Of a stretch of DNA of 64,000 nt, positions 4,481-28,262 are shown in pieces. The DNA is from a virus. Its lineage: Duplodnaviria; Caudoviricetes. The notes under the pieces were generated by a model that was given only the letters and a program-made list of their open reading frames with translations, was not told the origin of the DNA and searched no databases. The position numbers and the translations under genes were made by a program. How positions within the stretch are numbered: the stretch's first letter is position 1; every line of letters starts with the position of its first letter. The stretch is taken from IMG/VR virus record IMGVR_UViG_3300005611_000002, positions 64,001 to 128,000 of that record. One strand, written 5' to 3'.

Positions 4481-4666
4481 ATGACTGTTTTTGAACTCGT
4501 TGGAACTTCTGCTTGTATTGATTGGGCATCGCGCGCGGAACCTAATCGTATTGGTCTCTATTCCAATCGCGAAAAAGCTGAAGCAAAAATCAAAGAGATC
4601 AAAAAAGATAAACACTGGAAGATGGATTGGTCAAGTTTTAACATTTATGAGGTAGAAGTGAAATGA
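4481..4666 (+). CDS. hypothetical protein
   Basis: ATG 4481 after GAAAGGA. Confidence 0.65.
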   Translation: MTVFELVGTSACIDWASRAEPNRIGLYSNREKAEAKIKEIKKDKHWKMDWSSFNIYEVEVK

Positions 4667-5253
4667 ACTACACTTTCCCTGAAATCCGCACTATTGAAGA
4701 TGTGCTTCCGCATATCGAAGGTCGTGAAGAATTCATCGTAGCAGAGCGTGAAGGATATACCGTCGTAAATTACGTTGTGGCGATGGCTGACACCTTTGAT
4801 ATGACTGGCCCTGATGATCTTGGCGGTGCTATTCGCCGTGAGTGCAGAGGTTTGATCTTCGACCGTGACGGAAACATCATGAGTCGTCCGTTTCATAAGT
4901 TCTTCAATGTGAACGAGCGTGATGAAACTCAGTCTCATGTGATCGATATGTTGCAGCCGCATGTAATCATGGAAAAGATGGATGGATCTATGATTCGCCC
5001 TATCTTGGTTGACGGTTACTTGCGGCTTGCTACGAAAATGGGTGTGACTAACGTTGCTATGGATGCAGAGGCTTTTATGGCAAAGAATACCAAGTATAAG
5101 GATTTCTGCATATGGTGTTTGGATGAGGGGTTAACACCTATTTTTGAATGGACTAGTCCATTCAATCAAATCGTTCTTCCATATGAGAACGATATGTTAA
5201 CCCTTCTTGCTGTTAGGGAAAATATAACTGGTCGCTATCTCAGCATCAAATAA
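4663..5253 (+). CDS. rnlA: RNA ligase 1, N-terminal half (motifs I, Ia, III, IIIa)
   Basis: RECRGLIF, RPFHKFFN, EKMDGS, LATK, IFEW, LLAVR; ends before motifs IV/V. Confidence 0.85.
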   Translation: MNYTFPEIRTIEDVLPHIEGREEFIVAEREGYTVVNYVVAMADTFDMTGPDDLGGAIRRECRGLIFDRDGNIMSRPFHKFFNVNERDETQSHVIDMLQPHVIMEKMDGSMIRPILVDGYLRLATKMGVTNVAMDAEAFMAKNTKYKDFCIWCLDEGLTPIFEWTSPFNQIVLPYENDMLTLLAVRENITGRYLSIK

Positions 5254-5911
5254 TATCATATTTTTCTAGGACAGACTTCTCAAAGGTCTGTCCATTTTTC
5301 ATTTGGTTTATTATTCTAGTTCTAGTTCTTTTATATACCACATCAGGTGACTTCAAATAAGACACATCAGTATTATAGTTTCCATTTGCTTTTCTAGTTT
5401 CAACTCGTTTTTTGATAGATTCTTTAGTGTTTGCTGCGGACATATCGTTGTTGTATGTGCCCAATTTTTTACGAGTTTCTACTCTCTTTTGTATTTCTTC
5501 CTCTGTCCACCCACCTTTAGCTTTTCTAACATTCCAACTCTGTTTACCATTTTCTGTACATTTATCAATGTTATTGTTTAGATATGTTGAAATCTTGTTT
5601 TTCGTTTCTTCTGTGTGTGGTATACCTTCTCTACTTGGTGGAGCATTTCCGCCTAGTGTTAAATTATAACATCTCGGATCATTTACAAGATCATTTGTAA
5701 CAATCTCTGCTTCTTTTTCAAGTGCAGATTCTCTAGTATCAAAAAACTCTAGTATTTCTTTTGTAAACGTTTCTTTGCCATACTTTTTTATGGACTCTGT
5801 AATCGCTATGCCAGAACCCATATATCCATCAGACAAATCTGATGTGCTGTGAACACCTATATAAAATTTCAAATTGCTGTTGTTAGTGACTTTGTATAAA
5901 TAGTGATACAT
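5246..5911 (-). CDS. free-standing GIY-YIG (Seg-like) homing endonuclease with NUMOD-type repeats
   Basis: YLYKVTN..N.KFYIGVH, YMGSG, CYNL..GG, HTEETKNKIS; AT-rich; antisense to flanking genes. Confidence 0.85.
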   Translation of the reverse strand: MYHYLYKVTNNSNLKFYIGVHSTSDLSDGYMGSGIAITESIKKYGKETFTKEILEFFDTRESALEKEAEIVTNDLVNDPRCYNLTLGGNAPPSREGIPHTEETKNKISTYLNNNIDKCTENGKQSWNVRKAKGGWTEEEIQKRVETRKKLGTYNNDMSAANTKESIKKRVETRKANGNYNTDVSYLKSPDVVYKRTRTRIINQMKNGQTFEKSVLEKYDII

Positions 5912-5990
5912 GCTGGAACTTCCTTTCTTGTTCTAGAGTAGTTGGGGAGACTCTCACATATCCCGCGAACTACATTACTATTTATACAAG
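5891..5990. ncRNA. conserved structured endonuclease-leader element, copy 1
   Basis: TATAAATA(5895)...GCTGGAAC..GTTCTAGAGTAGTTGGGGA..TCCCGCGAACTACATT..TATTTATA(5979); covaries with copies 2 and 3. Confidence 0.75.
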
Positions 5991-5997
5991 ATAGTAG

Positions 5998-6026
5998 TTG
6001 ACATTCCACAAAAACCAATATAATAT
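5998..6026 (+). promoter_or_regulatory. sigma70-type promoter for the RNA ligase C-terminal half
   Basis: TTGACA-N17-TAATAT, then AAGGAG SD and ATG 6053. Confidence 0.8.
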
Positions 6027-6052
6027 GAACTTAGATGATAAGGAGTGATTCT

Positions 6053-6613
6053 ATGCTACTGAAAAAGATTTGTGAGTTTGATATCCCTACCGTGGATACC
6101 ATATTGCCATTTACTAAGATTGAATCTCTTTTAGAATTTACACGTGACCTTGAAAACGTTGAAGGCTTCGTCGTTGCTTTCGAAGATGGTCACAGAATAA
6201 AAATCAAAGCAGATCAATATGTTCGTATTCACAAGACTATTGACCGTATCACGTTTGATCGTAACATCGTTGACCTAATCATCAACGAAGAAGTTGACGA
6301 TATTATTCCGATGCTGCCGACTGTTCAAGTAGACCGCATTCGTGACTTCGAAACTCGTTTCTGGGAAGCGTTTGTAGCAACTGAGGACCGTCTTGCTGTA
6401 TATCAAACCGGTTGCGCACTGGTCTACAAGAATGACCGCAAGCGTGTTGCTTTGGAATTCATTCCGACTCTGGAGCACAAAGCAGATGCTTCGTTCATCT
6501 TTCGTATGTTGGACGGTCACGAAGTTCGTGATTTGATGATAGATCACATTCGTAAAAACATTAGTTCCAATACTCGTTGGGATGCTTGTGCAAAGTGGAT
6601 GGGAATGTGTTGA
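6053..6613 (+). CDS. rnlA: RNA ligase 1, C-terminal half (motifs IV, V and helical domain)
   Basis: EGFVV..F.DG.RIKIK...Y..IH, then IINEEVDD; own promoter and SD. Confidence 0.8.
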   Translation: MLLKKICEFDIPTVDTILPFTKIESLLEFTRDLENVEGFVVAFEDGHRIKIKADQYVRIHKTIDRITFDRNIVDLIINEEVDDIIPMLPTVQVDRIRDFETRFWEAFVATEDRLAVYQTGCALVYKNDRKRVALEFIPTLEHKADASFIFRMLDGHEVRDLMIDHIRKNISSNTRWDACAKWMGMC

Positions 6614-11875: not shown

Positions 11876-12316
11876 TTGTTCGTGTGGATTTATAATGGCG
11901 AAGAATTTACAAGTGAGATGATCGGTGACTATACGGGCTTTGTTTATATCATTACGAACAAGTCCAACGATAAAAAGTACATCGGTAAAAAGATCTTCAA
12001 GTCAAAACGAAAGTTACCTCCGCTGAAAGGTAAAACGCGCCGAAGAACAAAGATAGTCGAGTCAGACTGGCAGGATTACTTTGGATCTTCAGAAGAGGTT
12101 AAGAATCTTGTAGAGGAAACCGGACGTGACAATTTTTACCGCGAGATACTTCACTTGTGCAAAACAAAAGGAGAGATGTCTTACTTAGAATTGAAGGAAC
12201 AGATCGACCGTCACGCACTACTTGATGATAACTATTACAACGGAATTGTACAGGCAAAAATTCATCGTAGCCACGTACAAAGCCTAAAAGAACGGTTGAC
12301 AAATCAAACCAATTGA
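11876..12316 (+). CDS. single-domain GIY-YIG endonuclease (resident, EndoII/Seg-like)
   Basis: GFVYIITN...KYIGKK, SDW..YFGSS, YYN; AATAAATA at 11852. Confidence 0.8.
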   Translation: MFVWIYNGEEFTSEMIGDYTGFVYIITNKSNDKKYIGKKIFKSKRKLPPLKGKTRRRTKIVESDWQDYFGSSEEVKNLVEETGRDNFYREILHLCKTKGEMSYLELKEQIDRHALLDDNYYNGIVQAKIHRSHVQSLKERLTNQTN

Positions 12317-18754: not shown

Positions 18755-19285
18755 ATGGCGTATGTCGTAAGTTATGAAATAGAAAATTCTAATACTATAT
18801 TCGAGTCTCCGGCAAATGAGCCGGAGACTCAGTTTCCTAGTATCAGATCAACCAGTGATTATACATTCAACGTAACTTTCAACGTATTTGATGATGTAGC
18901 AAATGCAGACGTTGTGGTATTGAGTTCAAATGTTTCAGTTGCTAATACCACAGCAAATGTAAGTATTACATCCACTTCAAACAATTCAGTTCAAATCACG
19001 GTAGAACAGATTGGACCAATTGAACCAGAAATTGATTTGTACAGATTTATAAGCTTTGCAGAAGATTTTGGAAGCTTTGATATAGAACTTAAGACGGCAA
19101 ATAATGCTACGGAAGAAGACTCTGTCATAGAATGGGCAATTACAAGCGAAGTAATTGAATACAAAGTTTCATTAGCAACAGAAGCAAATAGCGTAGTGTC
19201 GACATACGAACAAGACTATCTTTTCCCAAATCTTACGTTAGACACCACTATTCTTTTAGATCTAGTTTCAAGGAGTAAATACTAA
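18755..19285 (+). CDS. acidic beta-rich hypothetical protein, possibly virion-associated
   Basis: ORF coupled to the PAAR gene; ANT/ANN motifs like the structural genes. Confidence 0.6.
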   Translation: MAYVVSYEIENSNTIFESPANEPETQFPSIRSTSDYTFNVTFNVFDDVANADVVVLSSNVSVANTTANVSITSTSNNSVQITVEQIGPIEPEIDLYRFISFAEDFGSFDIELKTANNATEEDSVIEWAITSEVIEYKVSLATEANSVVSTYEQDYLFPNLTLDTTILLDLVSRSKY

Positions 19286-20279: not shown

Positions 20280-21153
20280 GCCATTTTGTATTTTTTTGAT
20301 ACCAACTCCGACCTAATGTGATACGATATTTTGCTAAATAAATTTTAATCTCCATCACTTCTTTTCTTTTTGATTTTAATTTTCTCGTTTGAATATAACA
20401 CCCAGTCGTTATTTCCGGTGCTTCCTTTGTGTATTTCACTTTACTAATATCTGTTTTAAGTTGATCAATAAGATTTCTTTTTTCTATTATCTCTATACTA
20501 ATTTCTTTACAATTATCAAAATGGTGTCTAGACATTGCAGATGCGGATCTTGCCTTTGCTTTTTTCCCGCAGTGTGGGCATATTATATCTGGTTTTGAAT
20601 CTATAGTTTGCTTTCTTTTTTCTATTTGTTTTTTTCTAGTATTTTCTGAAATTTTAGATTGTCCGTTTCTAAATTTTTCACATCTTTTTTCATATTCTTC
20701 TTTAGTATAAGATTTCCAAATTTTTTTGTGTGTTTTTCGTGACTTTTCTTTAGATTTTTCTGATATAACTCTTCCAGGATATGATCTAGATTTACTAGAT
20801 TTACTTATTAGTTCGCTTCTTCTTCTTTGTACGTCTTCAGGTAACTCACTTAGTAATGGAAACCCTCTATTGTGAGTTATGTTCAACCATTTATCTGATT
20901 TTGATACTTTTAATCTTCGAAGTACACATTCTTCCCAAATTAAAGCATCTTTATGATTATTAAATTTTTTGCGAATTTGTATTACGTCTGGTTCGCCATT
21001 GATTTCTCTAAATTCCTTTACGTGTTTTGATGAAGTAAAGTATTTGACCCACAGATCAGACGGATGACAATTTTTTGCATAGCGAACACCATAATACCAT
21101 TTATCATATTTTGTCCAACCGATAAGATACGTGTAGGGAGTATAAATAGACAT
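20200..21153 (-). CDS. free-standing GIY-YIG-like homing endonuclease with CPHC Zn module
   Basis: YTYLIGW...WYYGVR, YFTSS, WE..VL, WLN, CPHC..HHFDNCK. Confidence 0.8.
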   Translation of the reverse strand: MSIYTPYTYLIGWTKYDKWYYGVRYAKNCHPSDLWVKYFTSSKHVKEFREINGEPDVIQIRKKFNNHKDALIWEECVLRRLKVSKSDKWLNITHNRGFPLLSELPEDVQRRRSELISKSSKSRSYPGRVISEKSKEKSRKTHKKIWKSYTKEEYEKRCEKFRNGQSKISENTRKKQIEKRKQTIDSKPDIICPHCGKKAKARSASAMSRHHFDNCKEISIEIIEKRNLIDQLKTDISKVKYTKEAPEITTGCYIQTRKLKSKRKEVMEIKIYLAKYRITLGRSWYQKNTKWLKEILHILRTFDDMIRNHERAHKYFQ

Positions 21154-21237
21154 GAGCTGCGTTCCTTATTTTTAAATGCGTTAACGTAGAGTAGTTGGGA
21201 CTGGTACTCCGCGAACTACATTAATATTTATAATTTT
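21136..21237. ncRNA. conserved structured endonuclease-leader element, copy 2
   Basis: TATAAATA(21141)..GCTGCGTT..AACGTAGAGTAGTTGGGACTGGTACTCCGCGAACTACATTAA TATTTATA(21225). Confidence 0.75.
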
Positions 21238-21429
21238 GGTTACTTCGTCCAAGCAAGCTTCTACGCCGCCGCATTTCTTGAAAGGACTGGAATTGCTATC
21301 AAGCAAGGTGTAATCTTGATCACTGTCGATGATGGTGAACCTCAAGTCTTCAAGATCAATACCTATGACTACCTCGAGCACTTTCTTGAAGTGCGAAAAA
21401 AGTTCAAACAAATGTACGAAGGGGGTTGA
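21238..21429 (+). pseudogene. orphaned second copy of the exonuclease 3' end
   Basis: GYFVQASFYAAAFLERTGIAIKQGVILITVDDGEPQVF...YEGG* aligns with GYEMQTCFYAAAFLERTGIAIKNYAIIITVDEGNSQVF at 20088-20279; no in-frame ATG/GTG/TTG upstream. Confidence 0.85.
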
Positions 21430-21787: not shown

Positions 21788-22174
21788 ATGGGTACTCATG
21801 CGATGATCGGCATCTGGAATTCCGAAGACGGCTCGGTTGAAGCCACTTATGTTCACTACGACGGCTACGTGGATGGCGTTGGAAATGCGCTGATCCACTT
21901 TTTCAATACTCAAGAAAGCGCATCGGCTGTTGCCAATGTTGGCTATCTTTCTTCTCTGAGTGCTGATCTTGAAACCTCCATCGAGGAATCAGTTCACCAG
22001 GAACCTACGGTTCCCTATGAGTCTGTCGAGCAGTTCATGAAGAACGGCTACGATTACGCAGGTGCGGAATATCTTTATCTTTGGGACGGTGAAGCGTGGT
22101 TTGTAGCTTCTCGGTATGGAGAACAGCGCTTCACTGATGTTATTACTGTTTTGAGTGAAAAAGATGCAGCTTAA
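21788..22174 (+). CDS. hypothetical early protein
   Basis: ATG 21788 after SD; MGT...IG...Y.HYDGY..GVG..L, EY.YL.DG..W. Confidence 0.75.
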   Translation: MGTHAMIGIWNSEDGSVEATYVHYDGYVDGVGNALIHFFNTQESASAVANVGYLSSLSADLETSIEESVHQEPTVPYESVEQFMKNGYDYAGAEYLYLWDGEAWFVASRYGEQRFTDVITVLSEKDAA

Positions 22175-27270: not shown

Positions 27271-28095
27271 CTAGCACTCTTCTTTCTTGTGTTTACAGTT
27301 ATCGAAATGATATCTTTGACCACCTTTCCCTTGAAACCTACAATGCGGGCACGTAAATGGCTTGCGGATTTTTGCAGACTTTTTCATATTTTCTTTATGT
27401 TCACCAGATTTGGGCACACCTTTTAGAGTTTTAGAAATGTTATTCTTAGTTTCATCTGAATGTACCCTACCTTTCATAGAAGTAGATATTTTTTCAGGAT
27501 CAGGTTTTTTCCTGTGTTTCATTTTTTCTTTATAACCAGGTCTTTGCCATATCTCCTTTCCAATCTCAGATCTTTTCTGTCTTTGTTCTTCGGTCAAATT
27601 CATTGGAACATCCTTCTTTGCTTTCGAGATAGATGCGCATTTTTTACCCTTATTCCAAGGAATATTACCTTTCTTACAAGGATTATTTTCAGACATTTCT
27701 TTACTCATTATCTTCTTTCGCTCAGCGCCCATGTCACTATCCCAAAACTGTTTCTTCAAAACAGATGCTGCTTTACCCGACAAACCAATAGCACGTTTTT
27801 TCACATTATAATATCTAATAGTTTCGTTACGTTTATTTTCTCCCAAACACAACTCTTCATCTTTGATCATGTCAAGATACTTTTGTTCTAGTGCAAATAA
27901 CTCTTTGGGATCATTACCGTAATAAAACTCAAGTATTTTCCTTCTGAAATCATGAGGTCTTTTCTTGATTGCGCTATCCATGAAACCAGTTGATGAAGTA
28001 TATCCATCATCCAATGAACCCATATGGGATCCAATACAAAACCACTTTCTTTTGCGGTCATACCAAATATATACGAAACCTGAATAAATATCCAT
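27271..28095 (-). CDS. free-standing GIY-YIG (Seg-like) homing endonuclease, NUMOD3 and CPHC
   Basis: GFVYIW...FCIGSH.G..DDGY.SS, RYYN, PWNKGK, HSDETKNNIS, CPHC..YHFDNCK. Confidence 0.85.
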   Translation of the reverse strand: MDIYSGFVYIWYDRKRKWFCIGSHMGSLDDGYTSSTGFMDSAIKKRPHDFRRKILEFYYGNDPKELFALEQKYLDMIKDEELCLGENKRNETIRYYNVKKRAIGLSGKAASVLKKQFWDSDMGAERKKIMSKEMSENNPCKKGNIPWNKGKKCASISKAKKDVPMNLTEEQRQKRSEIGKEIWQRPGYKEKMKHRKKPDPEKISTSMKGRVHSDETKNNISKTLKGVPKSGEHKENMKKSAKIRKPFTCPHCRFQGKGGQRYHFDNCKHKKEEC

Positions 28096-28175
28096 TGCTG
28101 GAACTCCTTTCTGTAAATGTTTAGTTCTAGAGTAGGTGGGACTGGTACTCCGCGACCTACATTTTTATTTATTAG
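28080..28175. ncRNA. conserved structured endonuclease-leader element, copy 3
   Basis: AATAAATA(28083)..GCTGGAACT..AGTTCTAGAGTAGGTGGGACTGGTACTCCGCGACCTACATTTT TATTTATT(28166). Confidence 0.75.
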
Positions 28176-28233: not shown

Positions 28234-28262
28234 TAAAAAAGGCGGGTCCGAAGACCCGCCTT
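28234..28262 (-). terminator. gp23 terminator (UUCG loop)
   Basis: minus strand AGGCGGGTC-TTCG-GACCCGCC-TTTTTT. Confidence 0.92.

Follow-up and report, generated by a model that had tools for sequence, protein, structure and literature searches.

A portable cassette of facing late-promoter boxes and a putative antisense RNA at the start of homing endonuclease genes in T4-like phages

Described controls of homing endonucleases and related antisense systems

Among the selfish elements of large phages, homing endonucleases are the principal ones, and they shape the exchange of genes between phages. Their control as described so far relies on late promoters and mRNA hairpins, with autorepression in the case of I-TevI. 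Translational masks formed by a late promoter placed in a hairpin are known for I-TevI, I-TevII, I-TevIII, segB and mobE of Aeh1 (PMC2988022), and Dassa et al. 2009 (PMC2677866) reported conserved hairpins with TATAAATA and two conserved motifs upstream of metagenomic endonuclease genes located in fractured genes. The cassette described here shares with the T-even masks the late promoter TATAAATA directly upstream of a homing endonuclease gene as well as RNA structure around the ribosome binding site. In the T-even masks, however, the promoter is located within the hairpin and the fold is formed on the mRNA, whereas in the cassette neither helix contains the promoter, a second box faces the first one from inside the ORF, and it is the opposite strand on which the fold is selected.

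In symE/SymR, a type I toxin-antitoxin system of E. coli (PMC3874152), the 5' end of the nuclease-like toxin gene contains a reverse promoter, and the cassette has a promoter-like box in the corresponding place. SymR is a short antisense RNA that complements the long leader, covers the Shine-Dalgarno (SD) sequence and lowers translation, and the cassette RNA is predicted to act alike. The cassette differs in that its promoters are phage late promoters (gp55-type TATAAATA) with both RNAs belonging to the same stage, in that its target is a homing endonuclease, and in being a multi-copy portable module on unrelated ORFs. No similarity of sequence or of covariance model was found between symE/SymR and the cassette. 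The RNA-OUT/RNA-IN pair of IS10/Tn10 (PMC5006887) represents a selfish element restraining its own enzyme by a stem-loop antisense RNA of ~69 nt. The promoter of RNA-OUT faces that of the mRNA, and the RNA binds by base pairing to the region where translation is initiated, the repression rising with copy number; RNA-OUT is a single long hairpin overlapping the first 35 nt of the mRNA, in contrast to the two hairpins of the cassette, which span the whole 5' UTR. The EcoRI restriction-modification system (PMC3874152) has convergent promoters in or next to the endonuclease gene, mutual interference between them and short antisense RNAs (88 nt), but the cassette differs from it in gene system, promoters and sequences, and the EcoRI arrangement is not portable.

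The PeSL cassettes of T4-like phages (PMC2839356, PMC4122927) are short repeated promoter and stem-loop modules which flank variable genes and mediate their shuffling. They consist of an early promoter and a terminator, with neither a facing promoter nor a tie to endonucleases, and the present cassette differs in each of these respects. The papers searched contain no description of facing late promoters or of antisense RNA at endonuclease starts; a facing-promoter antisense cassette would be new for homing endonucleases.

The cassette in the window and in other phages

The window, i.e. the whole stretch of 64,000 nucleotides that was analysed, belongs to a phage genome of 194,645 bp with terminal repeats. 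The phage is T4-like: its gp23-type capsid protein is 65–68% identical to homologues from Sinorhizobium phage phiM12 and cyanophages. The core pattern TAGAGTAGNTGGG..CCGCGANCTAC occurs in the window at 5934, 21187 and 28128 of the + strand only, with 0 matches expected (100 shuffles). At these three sites the original prediction had placed one common architecture, composed of an octamer pair (P1) enclosing two stems, A and B, together with invariant letters, and both the positions and all the letters it gave were verified in the window sequence. Copies 1 and 3 have GAAC/GTTC as stem A, and copy 2 has CGTT/AACG; for stem B, copies 1 and 2 share GTAGTT/AACTAC, and copy 3 has GTAGGT/ACCTAC. Copies 1 and 2 also agree in the octamer pair, TATAAATA/TATTTATA, which reads AATAAATA/TATTTATT in copy 3; in copy 1 the pair is part of a 13-nt inverted repeat (5892–5904 / 5977–5989). 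The features of the three copies are collected in Table 1.

Table 1. Positions of the cassette features (window coordinates, except for the last row; antisense RNAs and start sites are predicted)
Feature	Position	Strand	Remarks
Copy 1 GIY-YIG homing endonuclease gene, 221 aa	5246..5911	-	PF01541, 23.4 bits (cut-off 22.6); phrog_314, 3e-39
Copy 1 reverse late-promoter box TATAAATA	5895..5902	+	from sequence; inside endonuclease ORF codons 3-6
Copy 1 predicted antisense start	near 5908	+	downstream of reverse box
Copy 1 predicted antisense RNA	5908..5985	+	fold -19.1 kcal/mol, z -2.17; GCUG, hairpin A' (5913-5936), A5937, bulged hairpin B' (5938-5973), tail AUUACUAUUUAU
Copy 1 forward late-promoter box TATAAATA	5979..5986	-	5 nt upstream of G5973, the predicted +1 of the late endonuclease mRNA
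Copy 2 endonuclease-like gene, 317 aa	20200..21153	-	phrog_37840 and phrog_655; no Pfam catalytic hit
Copy 2 reverse late-promoter box TATAAATA	21141..21148	+	spacer GACAT; predicted +1 is G21154
Copy 2 predicted antisense RNA	21154..21231	+	covariance model 67 bits; hairpin A' (21157-21189), A21190, hairpin B' (21191-21219), tail AUUAAUAUUUAU
Copy 2 forward late-promoter box TATAAATA	21225..21232	-	5 nt upstream of G21219
Copy 3 homing-endonuclease gene, 274 aa	27271..28095	-	phrog_314, 1e-9; weak NUMOD3 hit; no Pfam catalytic hit
Copy 3 reverse late-promoter box AATAAATA	28083..28090	+	spacer TCCAT
Copy 3 predicted antisense RNA	28096..28172	+	covariance model 78 bits; hairpin A' (28098-28130), A28131, hairpin B' (28132-28160), tail AUUUUUAUUUAU
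Copy 3 forward late-promoter box AATAAATA	28166..28173	-	5 nt upstream of G28160
Five further copies (genome coordinates)	57207, 58714, 149605, 178789, 189264		R1 matches

All three downstream genes had been assigned to the GIY-YIG family. This holds for copy 1, which is above the Pfam cut-off, but copies 2 and 3 stay below it and are tied to copy 1 via PHROG families (phrog_314 or phrog_37840) annotated as homing endonuclease or unknown function. The cassette and endonuclease gene of copy 1 split a T4 RnlA-type RNA ligase gene (locus at 4663–5250, 5998–6027 and 6053–6610, all on the + strand). The N-part of the ligase matches positions 1–152 of 227 of PF09511, and the C-part ORF possesses its own sigma-70-like TTGACA-17-TATAAT promoter and SD, which follow the cassette directly. 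The endonuclease gene of copy 2 is antisense to a PD-(D/E)XK nuclease gene (PF12705, 19608–20276, + strand), which ends in the region antisense to the endonuclease and whose C-terminus has been replaced by it. Since an orphan 63-aa duplicate of this C-terminus sits just beyond the cassette (21238–21426, + strand), the arrangement suggests that the invading cassette brought a replacement 3' end for the nuclease gene. The endonuclease gene of copy 3 is downstream of the major capsid gene and of a strong bidirectional intrinsic terminator (28239–28262; 10 bp, 7 G-C), which lies between the capsid gene and the cassette.

A scan of IMG/VR with the strict core pattern retrieved at least 118 stretches, which gave the 115 distinct copies of alignment A2; the covariance model R1 was built from these copies. 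A second IMG/VR scan, with hairpin B left free, retrieved at least 120 stretches. Model R1 finds 8 copies in the 194,645-bp genome, 3 of them in the window, and 117 matches in the first 100 related loci, about 12 of which are divergent second copies. Among cultured phages one carrier was recognised, Rhizobium phage RHph_I1_18 (copy at MN988519 80280–80390): it gave the single, weak blastn match to copy 1, and the copy was then confirmed by the model. Blastn with a consensus-like copy gave no match among cultured phages, and a model search of Sinorhizobium phages phiM12 and phiN3, Stenotrophomonas phage DLP_6 and Methylophilales phage Melnitz-3 found no copy. The element had not been recognised as a named family, in agreement with the Rfam 15 search of the 64-kb window, which returned 0 matches at the gathering score. 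At E up to 10 in the three loci, only a DdR4 snoRNA match overlaps the element, and its E of 5.4 is noise.

The expectation that the element travels with free-standing endonucleases was confirmed, the downstream genes being of GIY-YIG, several HNH and TnsA-like types. These ORFs represent unrelated nuclease families, i.e. at least four GIY-YIG subfamilies, two HNH types and TnsA-like genes, and many of them contain NUMOD3 repeats; both HNH and HNH_3 genes occur behind the cassette. Identical hairpin variants are found on up to four unrelated nuclease families, and thus the cassette and its cargo are shuffled. The cassette is common to hundreds of endonuclease genes in uncultured T4-like phages.

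Several arrangements within this family deserve description. In locus L045 the cassette (121–226), devoid of TATTTAT and of an endonuclease ORF, now heads a T4-type large terminase gene (227–1900), presumably as a result of endonuclease loss. Two near-identical pairs of cassette and HNH gene are located 1.5 kb apart on the same strand of the genome (57207–57327 and 58714–58834; L125:17607–17727 and 19114–19234); their HNH products of 277 and 290 aa are identical in the first 16 residues. The cassette also occurs in jumbo-sized phage genomes, as carrier contigs of 259–525 kb demonstrate (L044, L073, L078, L109, L164 and L172). About 10 endonuclease-like genes of the present genome have no cassette, at genome positions 2961, 4985, 19029, 21804, 46851, 50804, 75876 and 185699 (+ strand) and 96189 and 104606 (- strand); those at 75876, 96189 and 104606 are in the window at 11876 (+), 32189 (-) and 40606 (-). 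Several of these genes have a plain TATAAATA 18–32 nt upstream. At 21804 and 50804 TATAAATA is found in the loop of a long hairpin with the SD in its 3' arm, and model R1 finds no cassette there.

Helix covariation, folding strand and promoter boxes

Stems A and B are supported by compensatory changes, as the original prediction had claimed: the 115 copies contain 167 cells changed on both sides of a pair, compared with 45.7 ± 5.2 after shuffling, and 0/500 shuffles attain this number. When the helix partners of A and B were slid against each other, pairing dropped from 91% to 32–49%. The outer stem of hairpin B comprises 28 distinct helices in the second sample, in which it was left unconstrained. 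A conserved structured element with invariant letters outside the stems is therefore borne out as a covarying element. The invariance of GCUG also stands, but not its unpaired state, as it pairs with UAGA as CUG/UAG including a G.U, on the antisense strand only. This pairing lengthens hairpin A' (primes denote the antisense strand) to 7–8 bp and leaves a single A between the hairpins; a compensated change of C-G to U-A within it was found at L087:3171.

The third helix behaves differently from A and B. P1 is almost invariant; its one variable heptamer position has 37 non-pairs as against 2 compensated changes, and its flanking position has 19 matches as against 20.1 expected, which is no better than chance. 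The compensatory changes claimed for P1 thus disappear in the larger alignment, the T/A change of copy 3 is a coincidence, and P1 as a selected helix was ruled out by covariation at the variable position and the flanks. The proposed three-way junction, its third helix unsupported by covariation, is likewise not supported. Nothing speaks in favour of the suggested ribozyme, with no Rfam match and no support for the third helix; a riboswitch or ribozyme class was not found in Rfam, and the former junction letters extend hairpin A' instead. The octamers, taken for the two sides of a closing helix, are better read as two facing late-promoter boxes, which had not been recognised as such.

The strand on which A and B are folded can be judged from the wobble pairs. 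At the well-defined helix positions every wobble is a G.U on the antisense strand (>100 cells, 39 distinct helices) and none is a G.U on the mRNA strand. Hairpin A, scored over five pairs in the 115 copies as it would read in the mRNA, has 67 A.C/C.A cells, 0 G.U and 11 cells with other mismatches. In the second sample, for which hairpin B was not fixed and the filter treats G.U and A.C alike, the counts in antisense orientation are 681 Watson-Crick, 15 G.U and 0 A.C for the outer stem B', 85 G-C, 22 G.U, 7 A-U and 0 A.C for the pair between the B' bulges, and 64 G.U and 0 A.C for stem A'. As the copies are related, such cell counts overstate the number of independent events and counts of distinct helices are fairer; these are 30:0 (G.U:A.C) for A' and 9:0 for outer B'. 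Close to the loop of hairpin B, two positions give a mixed signal from which no strand can be deduced (6 and 48 antisense G.U vs 14 and 20 A.C). Mutation bias was rejected as a source of the asymmetry by reasoning: a single transition is enough to turn a Watson-Crick pair into either G.U or A.C, and mutation without strand bias would thus produce both equally and cannot alone give the observed pattern.

The calculated energies agree in direction with the wobble pairs. In 105/115 copies the antisense core is stabler than the sense core, with a mean difference of 3.3 kcal/mol, and each of the window copies follows this pattern (-14.6 vs -9.1 kcal/mol in copy 2 and -18.0 vs -13.3 kcal/mol in copy 3). 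Taken singly, the antisense folds of copies 1, 2 and 3 have modest z-scores of -2.2, -0.5 and -1.1. On the mRNA strand only the last two SD bases are inside stem A, and one of the two outer pairs of this stem is an A.C mismatch in 58/115 copies; a stable mRNA helix sequestering the SD was not found across the 115 copies. The original view of the mRNA leader as the folded molecule is not supported, because the wobble pairs are confined to the strand antisense to the endonuclease. Selection on the fold thus acts on the antisense strand, and the RNA concerned would be one transcribed from the + strand of the window.

T4 late promoters normally have 5 nt between the box and the start site. The forward box of the cassette is 5 nt from the G opening hairpin B in 77 copies, and the reverse box has the same spacing of 5 nt to the G of GCUG; written as CAGC-N5-TATTTA, this spacing is exactly 5 nt in 79/109 copies. 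TATAAATA corresponds to the T4 late-promoter consensus (PMC2988022). In the present genome 48 ORFs, among them the capsid gene, are preceded by TATAAATA or AATAAATA at a distance of 18–80 nt. CAGC-N5-TATTTAT is kept while the ATG floats: all three reading frames are used, and in three copies the ATG is upstream of CAGC. TATTTAT is therefore a nucleotide-level signal and not a protein motif, and since it occupies codons 2–4 nearly all downstream ORFs start with M-x-I-Y. That TATTTAT merely follows from the GIY motif was rejected, as it is present in all three frames and also in HNH and TnsA-like genes. Of 105 upstream neighbours, 57 are divergent from the endonuclease gene and 48 co-directional. 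With this orientation close to 50:50, expression of a divergent neighbour was rejected as the general role of the reverse promoter.

Hairpin B' has a mean energy of -10.2 kcal/mol and is followed by a tail with a mean of 6.9 U per 12 nt and the consensus ACUUUUAUUUAU; on the antisense strand this sequence complements the forward box together with its spacer. The tails of window copies 1 and 2 are only moderately U-rich. Owing to the bulges in its stem, hairpin B' was not detected by a simple scan for terminators.

Proposed antisense control and alternative explanations

On balance the cassette is probably a portable expression module with an antisense RNA that restrains the homing endonuclease, where transcription and repression are deduced from sequence features. 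The module of ~90–95 bp contains two convergent T4-type late-promoter boxes with ~60–75 bp between them. From the forward box, which has the orientation of the endonuclease gene, transcription of the late mRNA would start at the G opening hairpin B, and the reverse box in ORF codons 2–4, if it fires, would start an RNA of ~55–75 nt on the opposite strand (+ in the window). This RNA is predicted to consist of a 5'-G, hairpin A' (CUG and 5 bp) with a loop complementary to the SD, as in copy 1, linker A, hairpin B' (6+1+3–5 bp with two invariant bulged G) and a U-rich tail; the last two parts resemble an intrinsic terminator, and the RNA would presumably end after hairpin B'. It would be complementary to the whole late 5' UTR including the SD. 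Pairing of the two RNAs would block ribosome binding and create a cleavable duplex, leading to less endonuclease, and interference between the facing promoters could be a second route to the same result. Both the mRNA and the antisense RNA would be late products; this simultaneous production, which is explained by analogy only, counts against the model.

Antisense pairing alone does not explain the invariant bulged G's, linker A and the 5' G. As all eight copies of the genome have kept B', the linker and the bulged G's, the antisense RNAs could bind a protein or act in trans. It is conceivable, if unlikely, that they constitute a new class of phage small RNAs acting family-wide, with a dedicated phage or host binding protein or with cross-regulation in trans of cassette-bearing endonucleases; the latter would be a copy-number-sensing ‘multi-copy inhibition’ of homing endonucleases.

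The same features might be considered as a classical T4 timing device on the mRNA. Here an RNA reading through from early or middle promoters farther upstream would pair the late box with TATTTAT just after the AUG (P1), closing a three-way junction which hides the start region, whereas late transcripts would start inside it and be translated. Such a device is established for I-TevI, segB and Aeh1 mobE (PMC2988022) and has relatives in the same genome, in the late-promoter-in-hairpin arrangement of the endonuclease genes at 21804 and 50804. P1 is part of the minimum-energy fold of the modelled read-through RNA in 40/68 copies (mean pair probability 0.55) and has 13 complementary bases in copy 1. 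It is at variance with this model that P1 has no compensatory change, that TATTTAT is kept despite loss of the forward box in L016, L018 and L083, and that helices A and B, when read on the mRNA strand, lack G.U but include A.C mismatches. Both helices lie entirely downstream of the predicted +1, so that P1 would be the only candidate for a hairpin with an embedded promoter in the cassette; being wholly within the late transcript, helices A and B cannot distinguish early from late RNA. As a full account of the cassette the timing device is thus rather improbable, but it may add a further level of control to that of the antisense RNA. It is less probable still that the + strand structure is an insulator or attenuator and not a free antisense RNA, i.e. 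either a terminator stopping transcription that enters the cassette against the endonuclease gene or the structured 5' leader of late transcripts continuing into a divergent neighbour. Hairpin B' with the U-rich tail on the + strand would suit the former; for the latter, the neighbour runs in the antisense direction in 57/105 loci, including window copies 1 and 2, with its start at a median of 72 nt past B'. In the other 48/105 loci, however, there is no gene to express in this direction, and for a plain terminator hairpin A', the fixed spacing of box and G and the invariant GCUG 5' end would all be superfluous.

Very little probability is given to the cassette being a DNA-level, PeSL-like recombination module, in which a conserved crossover point serves for the swapping of endonuclease ORFs and RNA structure is incidental. 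Identical apical hairpin variants are indeed joined to unrelated nuclease families, the cassette provides the first four codons of all attached families, the L045 copy now heads a terminase gene, and PeSL-mediated shuffling is documented (PMC2839356, PMC4122927). A DNA-level function, however, cannot yield the one-sided wobble asymmetry or the compensatory helix changes, and the shuffling fits better as a consequence of cassette conservation than as a selected function.

Control by a facing antisense RNA can be tested, because one cultured phage carries the cassette. The cassette accounts for the M-x-I-Y starts of so many endonucleases, for 5' ends far more conserved than the proteins, and for the plugging of new nuclease ORFs behind a ready-made control module; its covariance model represents a clean tool for finding free-standing endonuclease genes in metagenomes. 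If the RNAs formed a family-wide class of small RNAs, the phage genome and its selfish nucleases would have a hitherto unknown level at which their conflict is managed. If the antisense reading is true, the portable antisense-RNA cassette would be a new and apparently widespread way for homing endonucleases to limit their own cost.
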